Below, piece after piece: positions 49,079-59,996 of a DNA stretch of 64,000 bases. A program made the position numbers and the translations under genes. This DNA comes from Oceanispirochaeta sp. (lineage in GTDB: Bacteria; Spirochaetota; Spirochaetia; DSM-2461). The stretch spans positions 1,120,001 through 1,184,000 of the forward strand of contig CAXXXD010000002.1 in assembly GCA_963663385.2 (NCBI GenBank), read 5' to 3'. The notes under the pieces are model-generated. The model was not told the DNA's origin, searched no databases, and worked only from the letters and a program-made list of their open reading frames with translations. Position 1 is the first letter of the stretch, and each line of letters starts with the position of its first letter.

Positions 49079-52000
49079 TCAGAAAGTGATCTCCAGCTCT
49101 ACCCCCAGCTCATAGGCGTTCCTGAAAACTTCATGTTTTCCGCCCAGTCCCAGAGACATCCATCCCTTAAGGGAACCGAGATCGTCCACAACCAGTCTGG
49201 ACTCGTGGGTCAGTATGGTATCGTAGGTTGTATTGTCCTGATCTTCTCCGTCAAAATACCCTGTAAAAACAAGTTTCTCCCGGTGTTCCATGTGGTTCGA
49301 TTTTACAATCAGATGGTCAAAGAGGGGGATATTGATCCAGGCGTTCTCCGGTTCCCTCCAGCTGAATATAAGCTGCAGATCATCCTGTTTCAGTTCATCT
49401 TCAAAGTCGACTGTAAAGCTGTTGTCCAGAGCGATATCCCACATTTCCTCTCCCATCAGGCTGATATAATTCTGGTAGGTGAGTTCTTCCGGTTCGGGGG
49501 CCCAGCTTTTACGGCCGGACATAACATACTGGATGGAACTGGTCCATTCATCGGTTTTATAGAAGCGGAAGAGGGGAGTGCTGCCCCAGTCTCCGAAGAT
49601 ATTCAGGGCCGACTGAATCAGCTGGAACTCCCAGTGGTTTTCCCGGTACAGGGTGTCCTGATCCTTTATATACTCCCTGTCCATGGATATATCCATGGAA
49701 GAGGGCAGAAAAAGATCGCTCAGGTACGAACCCGGCATCCGGGAGAGGGAAAGAAATACTGTCGGGGTATAGCTGCTCTCATCAGTCAGGGTCAGGGTTT
49801 CTTCAAAGGCATTCATGGAATCGTCGCTGAATATCTCATGAAATGGAACGAAGTTCCAGAGGGGGAACTGGGATTCGATTCCCCTGAAGAGGGTATCCAT
49901 ATCGTCCCTGAAATCCCTGTGATCCCCCGGATAGAGGGTATTTTCCAGTTCACGGGAGTAACCGGGTTTCAGGGTCCATTCCCCCCGGGAGGATTGGAAG
50001 GTCAGGGGGAAGCTGAGCTCCGATTCCCAGCGGTTTTCCTGTACCCACTCATACTCTTCCTCCGCCCTGTATTCCAGGGCCGGTTCCCAGTTGATACCGA
50101 AGACTTCCCCTGTCAGGGTGAAGGTGCCTCTGCCGAATCCTTCCCGGCTTTCGATATCCTCCTGCAGAGGTCTGACATATTTAAAATCCGCCGCCCAGTC
50201 ACTGAAGTAATCACTGGAATCGCTCTCCCAGGCCGCTGTCTGATAAAGGTCCAGGGACAGACGGATACTTCCCGCATCAAATGGTTTGAGAGTGATCCAT
50301 CCCCCCCATTTCTGCAGAATCTGTTCGTCCGATCCGTCGCTTCCTGTGCTCCCCTGCAGGGTCAGGAGTGAGAAGGGGGTCAGGTAGAGGATGTTTTCCC
50401 TCTCCATCACATCATCACCTGGATGAAAAGAGCGGCTGTACCGGTCGGAAACCCATCCGAAAGAGGAGGACGAGGGGAGCCGGACCAGATGCCCCCCGGA
50501 GTAGAACGTATCGGTTTCATTCCGGAGAAGGTCAAAATCTCCTTCCAGACGGACATTCATAAAGTCTATGCCGCTGCTGAGCTGACTCTCAACCTGATTG
50601 GAGCGATCCGAAAAGAGCGAGTCCCTCTCTTCTGTAAAGTAATTCACCCTGTTGTAGACATTGAAGTTTTTCAGAATGGGAAAGCCCCCCGCTGTAAGCA
50701 GAATATCCCCCGGTCTGGCGTACTCCACGGTATATTCCGCAGTGGCCGCTGTGGAAAAGACGGGATCTGAAAAGTGAAGTTCGTCCAGCAGGAGGGTTCC
50801 CGAGGCCAGATCGGACATTCCAATCTCAAAACGGGTCAGTTCCGCCGCATCCTTATCAATCCCCAGGTTTGATACACTGGACGATCCGGAAAAGGAGGCG
50901 GTCCCCTCCCGCAGGTTCACTTTCAACTGTTCCCAGTCGGTTCCGCCGGGTTCATAGGACAGTCTGATCCCCTTGCCGTCGTTATCTGTCAGGCTGATAT
51001 AACCGGTTCCTCCGGTCCGGCCGTGCCGGATGTACAGGGACAGGATCCCGTAGTTCGAGGGATCGACTCCCTCCATCCAGGCTGTGCCGCTCCAGCTCTC
51101 ATCAGCCGCCAGGGCTGTCCCGTCCCTGCTGTCGTCTCCCCAGGATACTTTAAGGATTTTCTGGGTTTCATCTTCCGGGTGGAATAGGGAGGATACATCG
51201 GGAAAGGCCGTTTCCAGGGTAGAGTCCTCCACTTCAACCGCATCCAGGTTTTTCCCTTCCTGCTCATTCCCCTCCGCATCCAGTACTTTCATCAGGAGAG
51301 GAGAACCCTCTCCGCTGAACCCGGCGGCCAGAAGTTCCCCGCTGGACTCCCCGGATACGCTGTTTGTATTTTCCAGGAGAAAACGGTAGGACCGGACCCG
51401 GCTCAGTTTCTGCCTTTCACTGCTGGTAAGAGGCAGGGTAACCTTTTCCCAGCGGTTCTCCGTCCGAGGGAGGGTAATTAACCGTTCTATAAGGTAACTG
51501 CTGTTTCCCCTGTCCACGCTGCCGCTGTCATCGTTATCTTCGTTCTCTCCGTTTTCCCCCAGGAGAAGGGTTACTTTCAGGTCGTCTTCGCCCAGGTTCT
51601 GCCTGCGCAGATAGAAGCTGAGCTCCGAATAGCCGGACAGATCGATCAGCTCGCCGGTCACCGGGAGATAATCCCCCGCCGCCCAGTCATCCCCCTCCAG
51701 ATTGTAGGTCATAACCATAACCCGGGAAGAGAAGGGATCATCCGAGACCGCTGCAGCCAGCGAGGGGCCCTGTTCATCCTCATCAACAGGAGCGTCCCAG
51801 GTGTAGCTGTTCAGGTAGGTCTGTCCCAGGTTTGTGGTGGTGACAAAATCCCGGTAGATCAGATCAACCCTGTCTGCGGGGTCACAGCTGCTGTTGGCGG
51901 GCGTAAGGTTGTACTCCGGGGGAACCAGCTGGTCCATGGATATGGCAAAGCTGTATCCGCTCTCTTCCATCCCCATAATCCGGAAATTCCCCGCCGTATC

Positions 52001-53719
52001 CGCTGTGGTCAGGTTCAGTCCGGCACCGATCTTCATATTCAGGTTCTCCCTGTCGTAGAACCAGGTGGCCGCCAGGTCAACGATACCGGGGCTCTCTCCC
52101 TCTTCCTCGGTCATCCGGGATTCGGGGATGGTCCATCTGAGGGATTCCGCCAGTTCCAGCTTCATTCCGGGGGTCAGGTTCAGCCTGTTTCCCTGGGCCA
52201 TAAAGAGGTCGCCCCCGCTTAAACCGGCAGACTCTGTCCGGTAGGCTACCTCTATCCGGTCATCCGGGAAGATATAGCGGTTGAACTGCAGTTCTCCCGT
52301 GTCATAGTCTACCGTAACAGTCTGATCTTCCAGACCGTTCACTTTGACTTTTACGGACCCTTTTATCAGCCCCGAACCAAGAAAGTAATCCCCCGCATTC
52401 TCCTTTACGGAGAGTACAATCTTCCGGGACAGCTTGGATTCGTCTGTCGTTTTGCCGGGGCCGTAAATTTCCGGGTTCGCCTTAAAAAAGGGGACTCTGT
52501 TAATACTCTCCCTCTCGTCTTCTCCTGTGACCAGAACCGTCAGGACGTAATCGTCGGGGAGAAAGGTATACTCCGCATCCTCATCCGTTTCAGCGCCCTT
52601 ATCCAGCAGGGCAATGTCGGTTTTCCAGGATTCGTCGGGCAGGCTGCTGTTATAGGTATAGCGGTTATAACTCTGAAAAGGGGAGTATGTATGGGGCCTG
52701 TGAACCAGCAGGGTCTCATTCCCGTCAATTGAAACAAGTGATGTTTCCCGGAATGTCAGACTGTCCGGGTTATAGGGATCTGTTTCATCCCAGCTGAAGG
52801 GAAGGAGGGGCAGAGAAGGATCCGGGCGGCCTTTCCTGTCCGTATCCATGATAAAATCTTCCGCCAGGGCGGAATCTCCCACTTCTGATCCTCCCGACCG
52901 GTAGAAAAGGGCCACCCTTTTTTCAGATGCCGTCTCAAGGGTCAGGATGCCCTCTTTCAGATCAATCCTGAAGCCCGTGTCCAGTTCAGTATAGCGCCGG
53001 CCGTCGGATCCGGAATATTCGCCTTGCTCCGTCTCCTGATACACTGTCAGAGTGCTGATTTCCCTATTGGGGAGGATGAAGTACCGTCCTTCCTGATAGT
53101 CTGTAATCTGTATGATCTCTTCGGTAACTTCATACCCGCCCAGAAAGCTTTTGCTCTGTTCTTCTGTCGGATCGTAGCGGATCATAAACTCATGCTCGGA
53201 CTGTTCTGTCTGAAAGTGACCGCTGACACCGGGTGTATTGTATTCGGGTGAGGATACATCGATCCCTTCGTACTCACCGATACCGATACCGGCATTACCG
53301 ATGCGGACCTCTTTTACGGGGCTGTACTCATCCCCCTTATACCCCATAACATAGGTGTTTTTATCGTATCCTTCGGTAAAGGATGTTTCCAGAAAATAGT
53401 GGTCCAGCAGAAGAACGGAGAGAAAGAAATCCGGTTCCTGTGAGAACTCAAGGCCGTACTGCATATCAGGGAAGGCGGCGGGGAAGACAAAACCGTCCGA
53501 TCCGTTCTCCCATCCCGTACCGTAGGCTACTCTGTAGCGCCAGTACCCCTGCCAGAATACGTCGGTTCCCACATCACCCAGCTTCATATCCAGGATATGA
53601 TCCGGAGCTTCTGTAAAATCTTCAGCAGTTACGATCTCCTCTGCGCAGAGTAACGATGCGGAGGGTGAGAAGATGAGGAAAAATCCCATTATAAGAAAAA
53701 TGAATGTAATATTTTTCAC
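49079..53719 (-). CDS. Very large exported/outer-membrane protein (SprA-like features)
   Basis: Signal peptide, 1546 aa, beta-rich, GSVKVKVNG..TVDYDTGEL segment, C-terminal ELEITF. Confidence 0.6.
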   Translation of the reverse strand: MKNITFIFLIMGFFLIFSPSASLLCAEEIVTAEDFTEAPDHILDMKLGDVGTDVFWQGYWRYRVAYGTGWENGSDGFVFPAAFPDMQYGLEFSQEPDFFLSVLLLDHYFLETSFTEGYDKNTYVMGYKGDEYSPVKEVRIGNAGIGIGEYEGIDVSSPEYNTPGVSGHFQTEQSEHEFMIRYDPTEEQSKSFLGGYEVTEEIIQITDYQEGRYFILPNREISTLTVYQETEQGEYSGSDGRRYTELDTGFRIDLKEGILTLETASEKRVALFYRSGGSEVGDSALAEDFIMDTDRKGRPDPSLPLLPFSWDETDPYNPDSLTFRETSLVSIDGNETLLVHRPHTYSPFQSYNRYTYNSSLPDESWKTDIALLDKGAETDEDAEYTFLPDDYVLTVLVTGEDERESINRVPFFKANPEIYGPGKTTDESKLSRKIVLSVKENAGDYFLGSGLIKGSVKVKVNGLEDQTVTVDYDTGELQFNRYIFPDDRIEVAYRTESAGLSGGDLFMAQGNRLNLTPGMKLELAESLRWTIPESRMTEEEGESPGIVDLAATWFYDRENLNMKIGAGLNLTTADTAGNFRIMGMEESGYSFAISMDQLVPPEYNLTPANSSCDPADRVDLIYRDFVTTTNLGQTYLNSYTWDAPVDEDEQGPSLAAAVSDDPFSSRVMVMTYNLEGDDWAAGDYLPVTGELIDLSGYSELSFYLRRQNLGEDDLKVTLLLGENGENEDNDDSGSVDRGNSSYLIERLITLPRTENRWEKVTLPLTSSERQKLSRVRSYRFLLENTNSVSGESSGELLAAGFSGEGSPLLMKVLDAEGNEQEGKNLDAVEVEDSTLETAFPDVSSLFHPEDETQKILKVSWGDDSRDGTALAADESWSGTAWMEGVDPSNYGILSLYIRHGRTGGTGYISLTDNDGKGIRLSYEPGGTDWEQLKVNLREGTASFSGSSSVSNLGIDKDAAELTRFEIGMSDLASGTLLLDELHFSDPVFSTAATAEYTVEYARPGDILLTAGGFPILKNFNVYNRVNYFTEERDSLFSDRSNQVESQLSSGIDFMNVRLEGDFDLLRNETDTFYSGGHLVRLPSSSSFGWVSDRYSRSFHPGDDVMERENILYLTPFSLLTLQGSTGSDGSDEQILQKWGGWITLKPFDAGSIRLSLDLYQTAAWESDSSDYFSDWAADFKYVRPLQEDIESREGFGRGTFTLTGEVFGINWEPALEYRAEEEYEWVQENRWESELSFPLTFQSSRGEWTLKPGYSRELENTLYPGDHRDFRDDMDTLFRGIESQFPLWNFVPFHEIFSDDSMNAFEETLTLTDESSYTPTVFLSLSRMPGSYLSDLFLPSSMDISMDREYIKDQDTLYRENHWEFQLIQSALNIFGDWGSTPLFRFYKTDEWTSSIQYVMSGRKSWAPEPEELTYQNYISLMGEEMWDIALDNSFTVDFEDELKQDDLQLIFSWREPENAWINIPLFDHLIVKSNHMEHREKLVFTGYFDGEDQDNTTYDTILTHESRLVVDDLGSLKGWMSLGLGGKHEVFRNAYELGVELEITF

Positions 53720-53779
53720 TTTGTATTATTATTAACGTGGAAACAAAGATTAAGCAAACCCTTTATTGGTAGGAATATT

Positions 53780-54697
53780 ATGGAAAACGACAAGGCCAAA
53801 GCTCAGCAATTTCTGAGCCGGCTTATGCAGAATCCTACAATGAATGGATTTTCCGCCCTTCAGCGGGAAGATCAGCTGATGCAGTTTTTTTCCATCAATG
53901 GAGAGAAACTGAAGCCGACCTTATCTTCTCCCGCCTATTTCAGCGGTTGGTCCTGGCAGGATATCAATAAGATTATGATGGACACCCTCTTTGATATGAC
54001 AAACAGGGAGATCCTTCCACAGATTCAATCGGAGATTTTTGACAGGACAAGTTACTCCTATATCTCCTTTATGAAGCTTCCGGCTCCTACAGAAAGTATG
54101 AAGCGGCAGTTAATGAATGTGGTCAAAAAGGTGCTGGAGCATCCACAGGGCCGTCAGGAAATGACCGGTCCCCTTATCGCCCTGCGTACCGGAATTCTTA
54201 AAAAGTACATTATGCTGATTTTCGACAGGCAGAAATATGTACACTTTGAACTTACCCGGGCTCAGAGGCTGAGGATGTCTCAGGAGGAGGTGTACAATCT
54301 TATTAAAACATCCCTGATTCTGAAACCCCTCACGGTGCTCTTTATGCCGGGTGGACCTTCTCAGGGCTCCGTCCAGAACCTCTCTCATGCCTATGCCGAG
54401 AAAGTCACACAGCAGCTGACCAAACTGATTCCGGGACTGCCCGATCCCATTATCCGCAGCGGCGTAAACAGCAGCATGTCCTTTCAGGAGTTTAACGGTC
54501 TGGAGGCTACGGCCCGGCTTACGGCAGTTTTTTCAAGCCGCTGTGCGGGCATGAAACAGGGTATGAAGATAGACCGCGGTGCGGCGGCTTCGGATCAGAG
54601 CTGGTTTAATGTGGCCAGGCGCAACTACAAATACTATGGATATGATTTTGATCTGCTGACAGAGCTGTACAACATATCCGCAGAGAACGGATGGTAA
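53780..54697 (+). CDS. Conserved-looking hypothetical cytoplasmic protein
   Basis: 305-aa ORF with AGGA RBS, 4 bp from next gene. Confidence 0.75.
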   Translation: MENDKAKAQQFLSRLMQNPTMNGFSALQREDQLMQFFSINGEKLKPTLSSPAYFSGWSWQDINKIMMDTLFDMTNREILPQIQSEIFDRTSYSYISFMKLPAPTESMKRQLMNVVKKVLEHPQGRQEMTGPLIALRTGILKKYIMLIFDRQKYVHFELTRAQRLRMSQEEVYNLIKTSLILKPLTVLFMPGGPSQGSVQNLSHAYAEKVTQQLTKLIPGLPDPIIRSGVNSSMSFQEFNGLEATARLTAVFSSRCAGMKQGMKIDRGAAASDQSWFNVARRNYKYYGYDFDLLTELYNISAENGW

Positions 54698-54701
54698 GCT
54701 C

Positions 54702-55820
54702 ATGAAAGAAAAGGTTTCCGGTGCTATAGAAAATTTTATCCTTTTTGTGATCTTTATGGTTCTTGTCCAGACCTTTCTGGAAGATCTGGCCGTTATCCTC
54801 TCCTGGTCCTGGAGTGTCCGGAAAACCCTGATTATCACAGGGTTCGGGTTTGACCTCTTTTTTACCCTGGAATTCCTTATCCGGTATTTTACGGCCCTGA
54901 AAAGGGGAAAAGGGATCCGGTATTTTGTTTATCAGAGGGGATGGATCGATCTGATTGCGTCCCTCCCTCTGCTGCTCCTGAGTTCCGGACCGGCGGTAAT
55001 CTCCCTGATGGACGGAGGCGCTTTTGTGGCCGGAGCGGGAATGCTGAATATGCTGAAGGTTGTCAAAACCGTACGGATCGCCCGGATTCTCCGGCTCCTT
55101 CGTCTTCTGAAGGTGTTCAAAAAAATCAAATTCGTCCACTCTTCCATGGCCCAGAGGCACCTGACCAGGATAATCACTACGGTGATTTCCTCGCTGGTCC
55201 TCGCCCTGACTGGGGTTTCTTTTCTTCTGGCCCAGGTTAATGCCGCGGATGCGGAACACGACTTTGTCCGGAAGCATGAATCTCTGATTGAAACAGCCCT
55301 GGACCTTGAGCAGAAAGATCTTCTGACTTTTTTCGGCGAATCTCTCTTCGGAACCCAGGATTCCGTTCTGATTGTCCGTACCGATAAAGGCACTGTCTAT
55401 TCCCGGTTTAACAACAGCTATTACAGGAAGTGGTTCGGCCCCTCGGACTACGGGTATGTCCGGCAGGGGGATATGGAGGTTTTCTACAGCATGAAGCCCC
55501 TTTATGTAGGTGAGTCCAGGAACAATCTTCTGATCTTTATTTCCATCCTGGTTATGCTGGCGGTTCTGATGCTTTTCTACAGCCCCCATTTCGCCATTAC
55601 CGTGACAGATCCTGTCAATATTATGGCAAAAGGGTTCCGGGATTCCTCCTACAACCTGGAGGTCCTGATTCCCGAGGATCTGAAAGAGGACGATATCTTT
55701 CAGCTGGCCAGACTATACAACGAGGAGTATCTGCCTCTGAAAGCCCGTAATAATACCAGGGAGAGCGGGGCCAGCCTGGCCCTGAAGCTGGAGGACTTTG
55801 ACGATCTTTTGAAAGGATAG
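54702..55820 (+). CDS. Voltage-sensor-domain membrane protein with HAMP-like C-terminus
   Basis: S2 FFTLEFLIR, S3 GWIDLIASLP, S4 KVVKTVRIARILRLLRLLKVFK; two more TMs; TDPVNIM...DDIFQLARLYN. Confidence 0.8.
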   Translation: MKEKVSGAIENFILFVIFMVLVQTFLEDLAVILSWSWSVRKTLIITGFGFDLFFTLEFLIRYFTALKRGKGIRYFVYQRGWIDLIASLPLLLLSSGPAVISLMDGGAFVAGAGMLNMLKVVKTVRIARILRLLRLLKVFKKIKFVHSSMAQRHLTRIITTVISSLVLALTGVSFLLAQVNAADAEHDFVRKHESLIETALDLEQKDLLTFFGESLFGTQDSVLIVRTDKGTVYSRFNNSYYRKWFGPSDYGYVRQGDMEVFYSMKPLYVGESRNNLLIFISILVMLAVLMLFYSPHFAITVTDPVNIMAKGFRDSSYNLEVLIPEDLKEDDIFQLARLYNEEYLPLKARNNTRESGASLALKLEDFDDLLKG

Positions 55821-55821
55821 G

Positions 55822-55967
55822 ACCTCCCCCGGCCCCTCCTCGAGGAGGGGTGCAATCTGCTGGTCATGCTTCCTCCTTCAAAACAAGTGTGTAATTTATA
55901 TTACTTCTCCCCTTGAGGGGAGACTGAGAGGGGTTCGGGAGGAAGTCGCTTCTCCCACAGGGAGAAG
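55822..55967. repeat. Cluster of REP-like CCCCTC/GAGGGG palindromes
   Basis: CCCCTCCT-cg-AGGAGGGG (55833-55850), CTCCCC-ttga-GGGGAG (55907-55922), CTTCTCCC-aca-GGGAGAAG (55949-55967). Confidence 0.7.
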
Positions 55968-55985
55968 GTATGACATAATAGTGAT

Positions 55986-57239
55986 TTATCTTAAGGAAAT
56001 CTCGGGAAAAACCTTTGCCGTTTCTTCGGGAACAATGATCCTGATATAGCGCAGGGCGTCGGTAAATCCCTGAACAACGGGTTCGCTGAAAACCGATCCG
56101 GAATGAATAAAGGGGATATCCCTATCATTGACGAGAATGGGCAGGTCCACTTCGAAAGAGATCTTTGACGGGATATCGATAATCAGGTGATTTTCCGGGA
56201 GCAGGGATTTGTCCTTTTTGCAGATGCTTTCTGCCAGCTGCTCCTCATAGTTGAAGCGGAACTCCAGGTCTGCCAGTTTCCGGTGCAGTTCGTCCCCGTC
56301 ATCAAAGGGAATCTGGTTGACAATCCGGTAGCGTTTGGGGGTCTCCGCCTCCCGTATCAGAGAGGCCAGTTCCTCGGGGAGATCGGTCATACGCTTATAG
56401 AAGTGATCATCATCCATTCCATACAGATCTTCCCCCTTTATCAGTCCCCGGGAGAGACTGAGAAAGACAGCTTTTTTTACCATGGCCGTCGAAATCCGGA
56501 CATCCGTATGCCAGTAGACAGTTTTGTACATAAGGTATTTGGAGAAAAGGATATTCTCTATCGCTGTAACCCCCTTGGAGGTCAGGCCGATACCGGATGA
56601 AGTCGGTCTGATCTGGGATATAACAAAATCGATATCCTGTATCCCGTAGGGAACGCCGCAGAAATAGGCATCCCTGTTCAGGTAGTCCAGTTTATCCGGG
56701 TCCAGGACTCCCGACAGAATGTTTCTGAAAAATATCAGTTCGTCATTCCCCCTGTCGGGGATGGAACTGTCTATTATGGCGGCGGTCAGGTCCGGATCGC
56801 TGCCTATCTTTTCTTTGATTATGCTTCTGAGGCCTGATTCCCGGATCAGCTCCCCGGACAGGACTTCATGGTCCTTGAGAGGGAGTTCCTTAAATGAGTG
56901 GGCATGGGGAAAGTGTCCGATATCATGAAGCATGGAAGCGGTCAGGAAAGCCCTGGCACCCTCCAGTGAAATAAAGGGGCAATCCGCTGAATAAAGCAGG
57001 GTTTTCAGAATCCGCCGGGCCAGAAAGAATACGCCCAGGCTGTGGTTGAGCCTTGTATGGGTGGCCCCGGGGTATACCAGGGCCGCCGGACCAAGCTGTC
57101 TGATCCGGCCCAGTTTCTGAAACTCGGGATCATTCATCAGTTCCCTCAAACCCGGTGTAAGGTAGATATGCTTCCACAGTGGATCCCTGACAGGAACAGT
57201 ATAATCTTCGTTGATATGACGGATAATTGTCTGCTTCAT
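55986..57239 (-). CDS. HD-domain phosphohydrolase (SAMHD1/YwfO-like dNTPase family)
   Basis: RDP, IRQLG, HTRLNHSLG, LHDIGH, DPDKLDYL.RD. Confidence 0.88.
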   Translation of the reverse strand: MKQTIIRHINEDYTVPVRDPLWKHIYLTPGLRELMNDPEFQKLGRIRQLGPAALVYPGATHTRLNHSLGVFFLARRILKTLLYSADCPFISLEGARAFLTASMLHDIGHFPHAHSFKELPLKDHEVLSGELIRESGLRSIIKEKIGSDPDLTAAIIDSSIPDRGNDELIFFRNILSGVLDPDKLDYLNRDAYFCGVPYGIQDIDFVISQIRPTSSGIGLTSKGVTAIENILFSKYLMYKTVYWHTDVRISTAMVKKAVFLSLSRGLIKGEDLYGMDDDHFYKRMTDLPEELASLIREAETPKRYRIVNQIPFDDGDELHRKLADLEFRFNYEEQLAESICKKDKSLLPENHLIIDIPSKISFEVDLPILVNDRDIPFIHSGSVFSEPVVQGFTDALRYIRIIVPEETAKVFPEISLR

Positions 57240-58127: not shown

Positions 58128-58670
58128 CTAGCTTATAGGGATGCCCGCGTCTTTTCTGCGGAATGTTTTACCTACGGCTACGCAGTTGGCTTTTTGCGTA
58201 AAGACAACTCCCTCGTTCCAGTATTCCAGGGCGGCGAACATGGCATTTCCCCCGTCGTTATCATCACTCTCTTCTGTTCGGAAGGAAACAAAATCAGCCA
58301 GCTTTTCATAGTCTTCATGGTTCAGACAGTCGTTTCTCTGAACATTGAAACTGTTCCAGTCATCAATGGATTTGAATCCTTCCCCCTCATCTTCGATAAT
58401 GATACGGGCCTCATCTTCGGAAAAGGAGTACCAGACCTTCACAATCTTGTCTTTGTCGCTTTTATTGCCGTGTTTTACGGCATTTTTGATCAGTTCGCTT
58501 ACCTGCTGTTCCAGAAGGTTGATCTCCCGTATTTCGGGGGGGGCTTTTTGAACAATCAGAAGGGTGAAATAGCGGATCTGCCTGAAATCACTGGGAAACT
58601 CCTTATAAAACAGCCCCTCCTTATCCATTAACCTGTGATTATCATCCTGTAGAATTTTTTTCATGCTCAT
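58128..58670 (-). CDS. RsbW/SpoIIAB-like HATPase (anti-sigma kinase)
   Basis: SELIKNAVKHGN, IEDEGEGF; G2 box divergent (DGGNAM). Confidence 0.82.
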   Translation of the reverse strand: MSMKKILQDDNHRLMDKEGLFYKEFPSDFRQIRYFTLLIVQKAPPEIREINLLEQQVSELIKNAVKHGNKSDKDKIVKVWYSFSEDEARIIIEDEGEGFKSIDDWNSFNVQRNDCLNHEDYEKLADFVSFRTEESDDNDGGNAMFAALEYWNEGVVFTQKANCVAVGKTFRRKDAGIPIS

Positions 58671-58674
58671 TGTT

Positions 58675-59016
58675 CTAACCTTTCTGAAGTTTTAGTATAC
58701 CGTCTCTGAGAGTCTCTTCCATGGGGAAGTATCCTGTGAGCTTTGTCAATTCGATAACTTTTTTTACCGAACCGTGCACATTGGTTATGATCAGGCTGGC
58801 ATTTTTCTTTTTCAGGGCTGAACTGACAAAAATCAGGGCGCCGATTCCGCTGGAATCTATGTATTCAACCTTTTCCATGTTGATAATATAGAGGGATATA
58901 TTCTTTTCGAGCATTTTGCTGATCAGTTCCTTCAGCTTAAAAGCATTGTAAAGATCCATTTCTCCTTCGATATCTACAATGTATATATTTCCGCTTTTTC
59001 TAACTTTAAGTTCCAA
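58675..59016 (-). CDS. STAS anti-anti-sigma factor (RsbV/SpoIIAA-like)
   Basis: GEMDLYNA..LK, YIDSSGIGAL with phosphoacceptor Ser; TTG start 59016 after AGGAG. Confidence 0.9.
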   Translation of the reverse strand: MELKVRKSGNIYIVDIEGEMDLYNAFKLKELISKMLEKNISLYIINMEKVEYIDSSGIGALIFVSSALKKKNASLIITNVHGSVKKVIELTKLTGYFPMEETLRDGILKLQKG

Positions 59017-59155
59017 ACAAAAGCTCCTTGAGATCATTATGTTTCAGAAATGAAAATGTAAGTAAGTTCAAAGAAAATACCATTCACTAATCATTTATCA
59101 GAATCATAAATATTGTAACGGCCCTGCCGACGATTCGTCAAGAAAGAAACCAGCT

Positions 59156-59479
59156 TCATGAAGAAAACTGATCCTGAATGTCTTTGTAGATCTGTTTTCC
59201 CTCAGCCGAATCAAATCCGATGATTCTGATGCCGCAAACCTGAAAGCCTTCGTCATCGGTTTTCTGCCAGCGGACCTCTCCCTCCAGCCGGAAGCTTTTG
59301 ACAGAACCGTCCCGGGGGATAACCGTAATCTGTTCCACTGTGCCGGTCGGGGCTGAAACGGGCAGTATGGTTACATATTTAAACCCGTCGCTGCTTATAT
59401 CGCGCATATAACCGGGGATACCATTCATCAGTACTTTGGCATAACTGCTGTACCGGTCGTTCACTCTTTCATGGCTCAT
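59156..59479 (-). CDS. Stand-alone PilZ-domain protein
   Basis: RVNDR (RxxxR) and DISSDG (DxSxxG) motifs, GEVRW, GIRI. Confidence 0.8.
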   Translation of the reverse strand: MSHERVNDRYSSYAKVLMNGIPGYMRDISSDGFKYVTILPVSAPTGTVEQITVIPRDGSVKSFRLEGEVRWQKTDDEGFQVCGIRIIGFDSAEGKQIYKDIQDQFSS

Positions 59480-59996
59480 TACTGTAATTGCTCCTCATGG
59501 TTATAATTGTCCCTACGGTTTTCTCTTTATCCCAGGGAATATCGTTCTCTTCCTTATCATGGAAAGAGATGTGAAAATAATCAAAAGTTCTTTTTGTTAC
59601 CAGAAGTCCCATCCCGAACCGATTATAATTGTGTTTTTCCCTGTAATCCTGAAAGGATGAATCGTTTAAATCGATATCGGACACATCCCTGTTGATGTCA
59701 TAGGGAAGGCGGCCGATGTCAAAACCTCCTCCGGAATCCCGGATGATAATTTCAAGGTATTTATCATAAACGCTGAACCGGATAGTTATGGGAGCGTTGG
59801 TTTTCTGCTCCTTATGAGCTCTGATGGAGTTGTTTACCAGCTCCAGTATGGCATAGCGGATATGTTCAAGCTTGCTGTCCAGATCTGTAAAATACATATT
59901 ATGGAATTCTTTCAATAAAGCATTAAAATCCGAGCTTTTGGTGATATCAATTCTGACCGTTTTATATTTTTTTTCTTTATATTTAATATATCCCAT
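59469..59996 (-). CDS. Second RsbW-like HATPase
   Basis: LELVNNSIRAH, IRDSGGGF, GMGL. Confidence 0.8.
   Translation of the reverse strand: MGYIKYKEKKYKTVRIDITKSSDFNALLKEFHNMYFTDLDSKLEHIRYAILELVNNSIRAHKEQKTNAPITIRFSVYDKYLEIIIRDSGGGFDIGRLPYDINRDVSDIDLNDSSFQDYREKHNYNRFGMGLLVTKRTFDYFHISFHDKEENDIPWDKEKTVGTIITMRSNYSNEP

Follow-up and report, generated by a model that had tools for sequence, protein, structure and literature searches.

A conserved spirochete protein joining an S1-S4 voltage sensor to a divergent HAMP segment: a putative non-conducting voltage receptor with a candidate soluble partner

To our knowledge, voltage sensors outside ion channels are limited to a handful of eukaryotic proteins. 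HAMP domains, for their part, form two-subunit bundles and provide the best-understood bacterial transmembrane signalling module. SLC9C1 is described in one article as the sole transporter so far known to be under the control of a voltage sensor (PMC10620092). No bacterial protein combining such a sensor with a HAMP domain is mentioned in the passages considered from a 2025 review of sensor diversity (PMC13661669), nor was one found in the literature, our coverage of which was incomplete. The window analysed here, a stretch of 64,000 nucleotides (nt) from Oceanispirochaeta sp. (contig CAXXXD010000002.1, positions 1,120,001 to 1,184,000), encodes a protein of 372 amino acids (aa) in which a four-helix voltage sensor is followed by a transmembrane (TM) helix, a periplasmic domain, a second TM helix and a HAMP-like segment. 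This sensor-HAMP feature is real and conserved, and sequences and models support the interpretation given to it in a preliminary description made from the DNA letters. We rate at somewhat better than an even chance that the gene product is a non-conducting receptor of voltage, or of voltage plus a periplasmic input, which would signal through its HAMP domain and tail to a protein encoded by the neighbouring gene. This reading is carried by results obtained directly with sequence and structure tools: the architecture, the conservation of the sensor residues, the relation to HAMP, the lack of a pore loop and of a fused enzyme, and a strict gene pairing. The elements concerned, in window coordinates, are the following.

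54702..55820, + strand: whole sensor gene, 372 aa plus stop codon (open reading frame (ORF) and translation).
54705..55118, + strand: S1-S4 voltage-sensor domain, aa 2-139, with S1 at 2-32, S2 at 37-67, S3 at 80-104 and S4 at 113-139 (Pfam Ion_trans E 1.4e-8, Ci-VSP fold match, conserved charges).
55119..55235, + strand: short S4-TM5 linker with a conserved S-x-M-A-Q-R-H motif, then TM5, an S5-like helix at 148-178 (conservation, family profile against NavAb).
55236..55493, + strand: predicted periplasmic alpha/beta domain, aa 179-264, at the usual place of the pore loop (AlphaFold2 (AF2) elements, predicted local distance difference test (pLDDT) 85-90).
55494..55583, + strand: TM6, aa 265-294, running unbroken into the first HAMP helix (single helix 265-313 in the AF2 model).
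55584..55763, + strand: putative divergent HAMP domain, aa 295-354, with the first helix to 313, a connector at 314-330 and the second helix at 331-354 (hhalign against HAMP domains of the same genome).
55764..55817, + strand: acidic C-terminal tail of 18 aa, ending in an amphipathic motif of the type L-x-L-K-x-D-D-x-x-D-L (consensus, invariant L361).
53780..54697, + strand: upstream gene of the same operon, 'up305', encoding a soluble protein of 305 aa from an uncharacterised Spirochaetota family, a candidate signalling partner (adjacency, model).

Sequence, fold and conservation agree on the nature of the N-terminal half, well beyond what coincidence could produce. The Pfam Ion_trans model matched the protein above its cut-off from aa 10 to 169, over positions 5-141 of a profile of 241, a match that by sequence corresponds to the sensor half only, from S1 to the start of S5. 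The residues on which the preliminary description had based its voltage-sensor assignment were all present in the translation, namely F54 and E57 in S2, the W81-x-D83 motif in S3 and a K or R at every third position of S4 (119, 122, 125, 128, 131, 134 and 137, followed by K140). F54, E57 and D83 align on the S2 and S3 motif positions of Kv1.2 that form the charge-transfer centre. Conservation was evaluated on 88 representatives sharing 23-64% identity with the window protein. The seven S4 positions are K or R in 85, 90, 91, 93, 99, 100 and 99% of these sequences, respectively; F54 and D83 are each kept in 87/88, and D51, a D or E at position 57 and a K or R at position 61 (R61 in the window protein) in 88/88. 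Judging from this alignment, the sensor-critical residues are under strong constraint across the family. In line with this, the first 140 residues of the AF2 model superposed on the crystal structure of the Ci-VSP sensor with a Z of 13.1 (root-mean-square deviation (rmsd) 2.8, 124/136 residues aligned), a second structural comparison with the same sensor giving a Z of 12.9, and the next matches were Nav and Cav sensors (Z 10-11.7). Direct sequence searches of the PDB returned the sensor parts of Kv1.2, Kv3.1, HCN and NavAb only and left the C-terminal half unmatched; no NCBIfam model matched the protein, the gene of which is present in a single copy in its own genome. The preliminary description had spoken of a voltage or proton motive force sensor; the second term claims too much, as an S4 sensor responds to the electrical component alone.

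Downstream of S4, the protein departs from the organisation of a channel. The AF2 model (37 homologues in the alignment; pLDDT 79.2, predicted template modelling score (pTM) 0.71) comprises a loop at 140-147, TM5 at 148-178, the insert, the long helix 265-313, a connector at 314-330, a helix at 331-354 and a low-confidence end. M149, Q151 and H153, in the linker and TM5, are invariant in the 37 sequences, and H153 is found in 82/88. The insert was modelled at a pLDDT of 85-90 as helices 184-204 and 208-217, strands 222-227 and 230-234, helix 238-244, and strands 250-255 and 258-263, that is, as a helix-helix-hairpin-helix-hairpin domain of the alpha/beta type with four strands, which offers no pore helix and filter; no Pfam domain covers it. 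As previously described, two TM helices flank a soluble loop, of about 85-95 aa, and no TxGYG or TLESW-type filter motif occurs in the translation. The pore module of a six-TM Ion_trans channel, consisting of S5, a pore helix, a filter and S6, was not found in the protein. The check suggested beforehand, which opposed a pore helix to a periplasmic domain plus HAMP, came out in favour of the latter in the model, and Foldseek, run with the whole model, ranked first a WalK histidine-kinase model (9a5d_A, E 0.015, probability 1.0, 256 columns), of which the matched part is the TM, extracellular domain, TM and HAMP series. Structural searches with the whole model were filled by matches to the sensor domain (model residues 1-165). 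At the junction of TM6 and HAMP, Y293, F297, A298, D303 and P304 are invariant in the 37 sequences, while the membrane part of TM6 is variable, a pattern expected of a signal-transmitting helix and not of a pore lining.

The C-terminal segment is read here as a divergent HAMP domain. As the Pfam HAMP model stayed below its threshold in all members of the family, 29 distinct HAMP domains encoded in this genome (taken from the 30 best loci of a genome scan) were used to build a profile, which was compared with the family columns for aa 290-360. The two aligned by hhalign with a probability of 87% (P 4.1e-6, 47 columns), P304 falling on the HAMP proline and the block D-D-I-F-Q-L-A-R-L-Y-N on the D-E-I-G..L...F-N block. 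The controls reached 3.1% for the periplasmic part, 0.1% for the sensor part and at most 1.1% for 20 column-shuffled copies. From a structural point of view, the segment lies directly after a membrane helix and consists, in the AF2 model, of two helices and a connector over about 50 aa. The profile-profile comparison, the position and the helix pattern thus all favour the HAMP-like segment proposed in the preliminary description, of which the TDPVNIM and DDIFQLARLYN stretches are indeed present. An atlas feature search with aa 146-372 returned HAMP and sensor-kinase clusters at 0.86-0.89, ranked below the family's own three clusters, and these are to be taken as leads only. The genome, of 5.3 Mb, displays 67 HAMP matches at E ≤ 0.01, which constitutes a very large repertoire of transmembrane signalling.

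The protein ends after this segment in the short acidic tail anticipated by the preliminary description, in which L361 is invariant in the family consensus, and an output enzyme fused to it was not found in any relative considered. A word-indexed search yielded 478 relatives at E ≤ 1e-3. Among the 120 matches listed, lengths range from 224 to 525 aa (most of them 366-400), all but a few shorter ones cover 89-100% of the query, and the entries, from Spirochaetales, Oceanispirochaeta and Salinispira, bear the names 'ion transporter' or 'hypothetical'. When aa 165-372 were used in a full HMMER pass, 190 representatives were retrieved at E ≤ 1e-3, of which 126 reached E ≤ 1e-10; almost all of the 190 measure 355-400 aa and are matched at about 210-370. 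None of these 190 carries a fused kinase, cyclase, methyl-accepting or other output domain, and the longer relatives P0069, P0155, P0139, P0128 and P0060 show no additional Pfam domain. A search aimed at longer, fused homologues found nothing, which the tool itself treats as weak evidence. The single very long HMMER match was an unrelated repetitive protein. A sensor-less architecture was also considered on the basis of two frames of 226 aa in one genome (G176), which match aa 149-371 only. Both abut contig ends and start at the conserved M149 as their first ATG, so they are truncated genes and not a separate architecture, and the HMMER representatives of 200-270 aa may be fragments of the same kind.

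The family is confined to Spirochaetota. Taking one genome for each of 185,579 species, 183 stretches encode a relative, and the 80 loci kept from these form the basis of the locus counts given below. Their titles designate Spirochaet* in 78 cases, an 'uncultured bacterium' in one (L053) and a Myxococcota-labelled metagenome-assembled genome in one (L007). On the contig of the latter, the operon and the genes downstream of it are arranged as in the spirochete loci, which makes a binning error seem likelier than a transfer. In an even sample of 201 Spirochaetota genomes covering 105 genera, the sensor gene was present in 58 genomes and 42 genera, and its distribution followed taxonomic families: all sampled members in some (17/17, 7/7), none in others (0/16, 0/23, 0/24).

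The preliminary description had proposed a receptor that signals through a separate partner, for which the 305-aa upstream gene now provides a concrete candidate; the binding itself is a prediction of modelling. In the window, the stop codon of this gene lies 4 nt before the ATG of the sensor gene, and in 80/80 related loci a homologue immediately precedes the sensor gene in the same orientation. Among the 201 sampled genomes, 58 possess the sensor and 43 the neighbour family; 40 possess both, which are adjacent in 39 of these 40 (the exception being G044). The three genomes with the neighbour only show weak or partial matches (E 1e-13 to 2e-20). Two genomes of 1.2-1.5 Mb from the same class (G124 and G190) harbour frames of 287-293 aa with weak homology to the neighbour (E 9e-16 and 1e-13), and the sensor was not found in them with the window query.

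The genomes possessing the sensor only, 18 in number, provide a natural control. Eight were inspected, and seven of these encode a paralogue, referred to here as type B, with a short basic end and no neighbour of the 305-aa type. Type-B proteins are 351-376 aa long, 29-33% identical, and end shortly past a conserved L-P-x-K motif. In the eighth genome (G014), the sensor has an acidic tail and a divergent neighbour that the genome search had missed (hmmsearch E 1.1e-11), and another genome (G120) possesses a paired copy plus an additional type-B copy. The tails of 72 neighbour-linked proteins, 70 of which were scored, have a median length of 26 aa and a net charge of -5 (range -11 to -1), to be compared with 11 aa and +4 for type B (7 of 8 scored). 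A strict tail motif matched only 24/70 tails and was replaced by tail length and net charge. As for the surroundings of type B (L112-L117, L121 and L122), a Peptidase_C14 (caspase-like) gene was seen upstream in 5/8 loci (one tested, E 2e-24), its product having a signal-like N-terminus by eye, and an ORF of 412-436 aa was seen downstream, also in 5/8, the one tested being a membrane-anchored polysaccharide deacetylase (E 7e-20). Type B may represent a second, envelope-linked use of the same sensor.

A complex of two copies of sensor aa 140-372 with the 305-aa protein was then predicted, only the partner chain being scored. The score was 0.57 (runs at 0.49, 0.57 and 0.65), while the best of three controls scored 0.02; the tool verdict was 'weak support', with at least 87% of contacts common to the runs and a partner pLDDT of at least 81. 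In the calibration of this score, the mark was reached by 116/157 solved complexes and 2/215 mismatched pairs, values obtained under conditions unlike those of the present job with its custom alignments and three chains. The phyletic pattern, the natural control offered by type B and the complex prediction, taken together, argue for a functional pair.

The candidate partner belongs to a family without annotation. Its 371 relatives carry no precomputed Pfam domain and, where named, are called 'hypothetical protein'; Pfam gave no match at E ≤ 5 in any of 55 members, no NCBIfam match and no usable atlas match were obtained, and a sequence search of the PDB found no relative (best row symplekin, E 1.6). 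The AF2 model is all-helical and confident (pLDDT 91.3, pTM 0.89). Its structural rows are mostly HD-fold phosphohydrolases, headed by the HD-GYP protein DvhD (Z 8.6, rmsd 4.5, 157 aligned) and continuing with YhaM (8.4), Bd1817 (8.0), PA4781 (7.7), V-cGAP3 (7.5) and PgpH (7.0), after which come phosphodiesterases, C-terminal domains of exopolyphosphatases and SpoT/Mesh1. Invariant positions include several Arg, Lys, Asp and Trp residues, and histidine is conserved at one position only, H155 (82%); no HD pair or H...HD...D metal site was found among the columns conserved at 80% or more. From its model and alignment, the neighbour may be an HD-like scaffold without metal site.

The wider surroundings of the operon are conserved as well. 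Divergently from it lies an ORF of 1546 aa (49079-53719, - strand), the product of which begins, by eye, with a hydrophobic signal-like stretch and is matched by neither Pfam nor NCBIfam. A gene convergent with the sensor gene (55986-57239, - strand) encodes an HD + HD_assoc_2 protein (E 3e-8 and 3e-16). Where this HD gene is present in related loci, it usually lies 1.6-3.6 kb further off, with DUF503, ComFB-like, unnamed 150-aa and PP-loop genes in between, whereas the window's own clade has no genes intervening between sensor and HD gene; the DUF503 gene directly follows the sensor in 58 loci, not in this clade. Further on, four small ORFs of 180, 120, 107 and 175 aa (58128-59996, - strand), found in 4-6/80 related loci, resemble by eye an anti-sigma-factor kinase/antagonist (STAS) partner-switching set. 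A scan of 53600-56100 for promoters and terminators gave counts close to the shuffled expectation and nothing usable.

From a mechanistic point of view, a change in membrane potential would move S4, and the short linker would pass this motion to TM5, shifting it against TM6. Through the conserved TM6-HAMP junction, the shift would then reach the HAMP bundle, presumably that of a dimer, and the state of this bundle would determine if the acidic amphipathic tail can bind the co-encoded 305-aa protein. As the latter has a putative HD-like fold without the catalytic His-Asp pair, the output would consist in binding or an adaptor function and not in hydrolysis. The periplasmic domain may add a second input, chemical or from the envelope. 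In this scheme, movement, voltage dependence, lack of conduction, dimerisation, partner binding and output are all proposals derived from alignments and models.

Several observations weigh against this scheme. The Pfam HAMP model (PF00672) is under its cut-off in every member and gives no match at E ≤ 1 with the window protein; it reaches E ≤ 1 in only 4/88 relatives (best 0.015), its best scores being those of P0155 (E 0.0027, 18.5 bits for a cut-off of 25) and P0126 (E 0.0057), and the segment is not among the 67 sites of the genome-wide HAMP scan. The resemblance of the neighbour to HD folds is weak, with Z values of at most 8.6, in a range that the tool calls common for helical proteins, and a best Foldseek E of 0.75. 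Part of the adjacency between sensor and neighbour could be plain synteny, since the wider gene order is conserved too (divergent 1546-aa gene in 73/80 loci, HD gene in 60/80). The complex score falls in a band where, according to the tool, wrong predictions outnumber right ones except for guesses with a good prior probability, scores up to 0.60 having been given by only 18 of the 157 solved complexes and by both mismatches that passed. Finally, in four relatives (P0241, P0249, P0224 and one type-B copy) the Ion_trans match spans TM5 and TM6 up to profile positions 221-229 of 241, so that TM5 and TM6 may be descended from S5 and S6, with a non-canonical pore as a possible consequence.

The protein could alternatively be mainly a receptor of periplasmic or envelope signals, in which a ligand or envelope protein would be bound by the alpha/beta domain, and the four helices of the sensor would anchor the protein in the membrane or only tune the response. 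The domain is confidently folded in the model, G246 is invariant in the 37 sequences and D249 is D or E in 80% of the 88; moreover, the tail-less paralogue sits between genes of the envelope type, Peptidase_C14 upstream and polysaccharide deacetylase downstream, and the window copy is close to the 1546-aa protein with its signal-like N-terminus. However, a mere anchor would need neither seven gating charges nor a charge-transfer centre kept at 85-100%, and conservation is poor in the N-terminal half of the periplasmic domain. We regard this explanation as unlikely; it is compatible with a dual input and not opposed to voltage sensing.

A divergent voltage-gated channel appears more improbable still. 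TM5 and TM6 of several subunits would here line a pore without canonical P-loop, with the periplasmic domain as its outer vestibule or gate; the C-terminal helices would hold the subunits together in a bundle like that of bacterial sodium channels. The 'ion transporter' label of relatives in the source databases points in this direction, as do the conserved S4-TM5 linker motif and the family profile, in which S4, linker and TM5 (aa 117-177) align to NavAb residues 107-170 (E about 0.09); the chief support comes from the extended Ion_trans matches of the four relatives mentioned above. By contrast, the well-modelled insert has no filter motif or pore helix, it is the TM6-HAMP junction and not the membrane part of TM6 that is invariant, and the C-terminus is related to a domain that assembles by twos. 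The genome, furthermore, already encodes two canonical Ion_trans proteins, spanning profile positions 2-238 and 3-236, with ordinary K+ filters. One (L124:1441-2256, + strand) is a Kv-type K+ channel of 271 aa, its S4 rich in arginine and its filter TVGYGD; the other (L125:886-2223, - strand) is a K+ channel of 445 aa with a TIGYGD filter, the C-terminal part of which is cyclic-nucleotide-binding-like by eye. As these channels keep their filters, the absence of the pore belongs to the sensor family and not to the channels of the organism. In a pairwise BLAST, the sensor protein and the Kv channel of the same genome showed no significant similarity (best E 2.3). Should the protein prove to be a channel after all, a channel without P-loop would be likewise unusual.

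An Hv1-like conductor, in which the sensor domain itself passes protons or ions and the remainder is a dimerising and regulatory module, seems very improbable: a pore-less sensor with a C-terminal helical module does recall Hv1, and the best structural matches are stand-alone sensors, but S4 carries seven charges and not three, the middle of S1 shows conserved Q23 and T24 in the family alignment and no acidic residue where Hv1 has its selectivity aspartate, and such a conductor would account for neither the HAMP relation nor the strict gene pairing.

Returning to the non-conducting receptor, the family joins the best-understood voltage-sensing module with the best-understood bacterial module of transmembrane signalling, and would thereby offer a simple system for studying how S4 drives outputs other than a gate and how bacteria read their own electrical state. 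Being small, conserved and paired with one soluble protein, it makes the hypothesis directly testable. It also provides a candidate molecule for an old hypothesis, according to which electrical signals take part in the behaviour of spirochetes, whose cells are long and thin. In Spirochaeta aurantia, the membrane potential is reportedly involved in chemosensory signalling and a voltage clamp is said to inhibit chemotaxis, according to the titles of two papers of 1981 and 1983. The sensor family occurs in free-living genomes of the Spirochaetaceae type and is a candidate reader of such a signal, which the Kv-type and cyclic-nucleotide-type K+ channels of the genome could generate; the genes around the sensor gene showed no connection with chemotaxis genes. 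In its boldest form, which we consider a rather unlikely speculation, the operon would be the first dedicated bacterial receptor of membrane potential, an S4-driven HAMP switch in a two-protein pathway, and the missing reader of spirochete chemosensory signalling by membrane potential.

Compared with voltage-gated cation channels of the Ion_trans type (Kv, HCN, NavAb), the protein has in common an S1-S4 sensor with gating charges, the Phe, Glu and Asp of the charge-transfer centre and a connection from S4 to an S5-like helix; it differs from them by an alpha/beta domain of about 85 aa in place of the pore helix and filter, and by a HAMP segment after TM6. With Ci-VSP, SLC9C1 and Hv1 it shares a voltage sensor coupled to something besides a tetrameric pore, the Ci-VSP sensor being indeed its best structural match. 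Unlike these, it is bacterial and has no effector enzyme or transporter on the same chain, no PTEN-like phosphatase domain being found after S4 in Pfam and NCBIfam scans of the protein, and its proposed coupling would reach a separate protein by way of two more membrane helices and a HAMP domain. In its C-terminal half, the succession of elements, the topology and the HAMP profile relation are those of TM/periplasmic/TM/HAMP receptors such as WalK and the chemoreceptors. By contrast with the latter, a four-helix voltage sensor precedes the first receptor helix, and no kinase, methyl-accepting, cyclase or other output follows HAMP (no Pfam match for HisKA/HATPase, MCP signal, GGDEF or similar domains in the protein or its longer relatives). 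As for the neighbour, its top structural rows are almost all HD-fold enzymes, whereas it differs from HD and HD-GYP phosphohydrolases by the presence of H155 alone, without an HD pair, and by the absence of any HD-type Pfam match in the 55 members. Since neither a pore, nor an output domain, nor a phosphatase was found, the sensor protein is a member of neither group: it is like the eukaryotic non-channel sensors in principle and like the bacterial HAMP receptors in its second half, and what is new is an architecture made of two known kinds of module, together with a concrete candidate for its partner.

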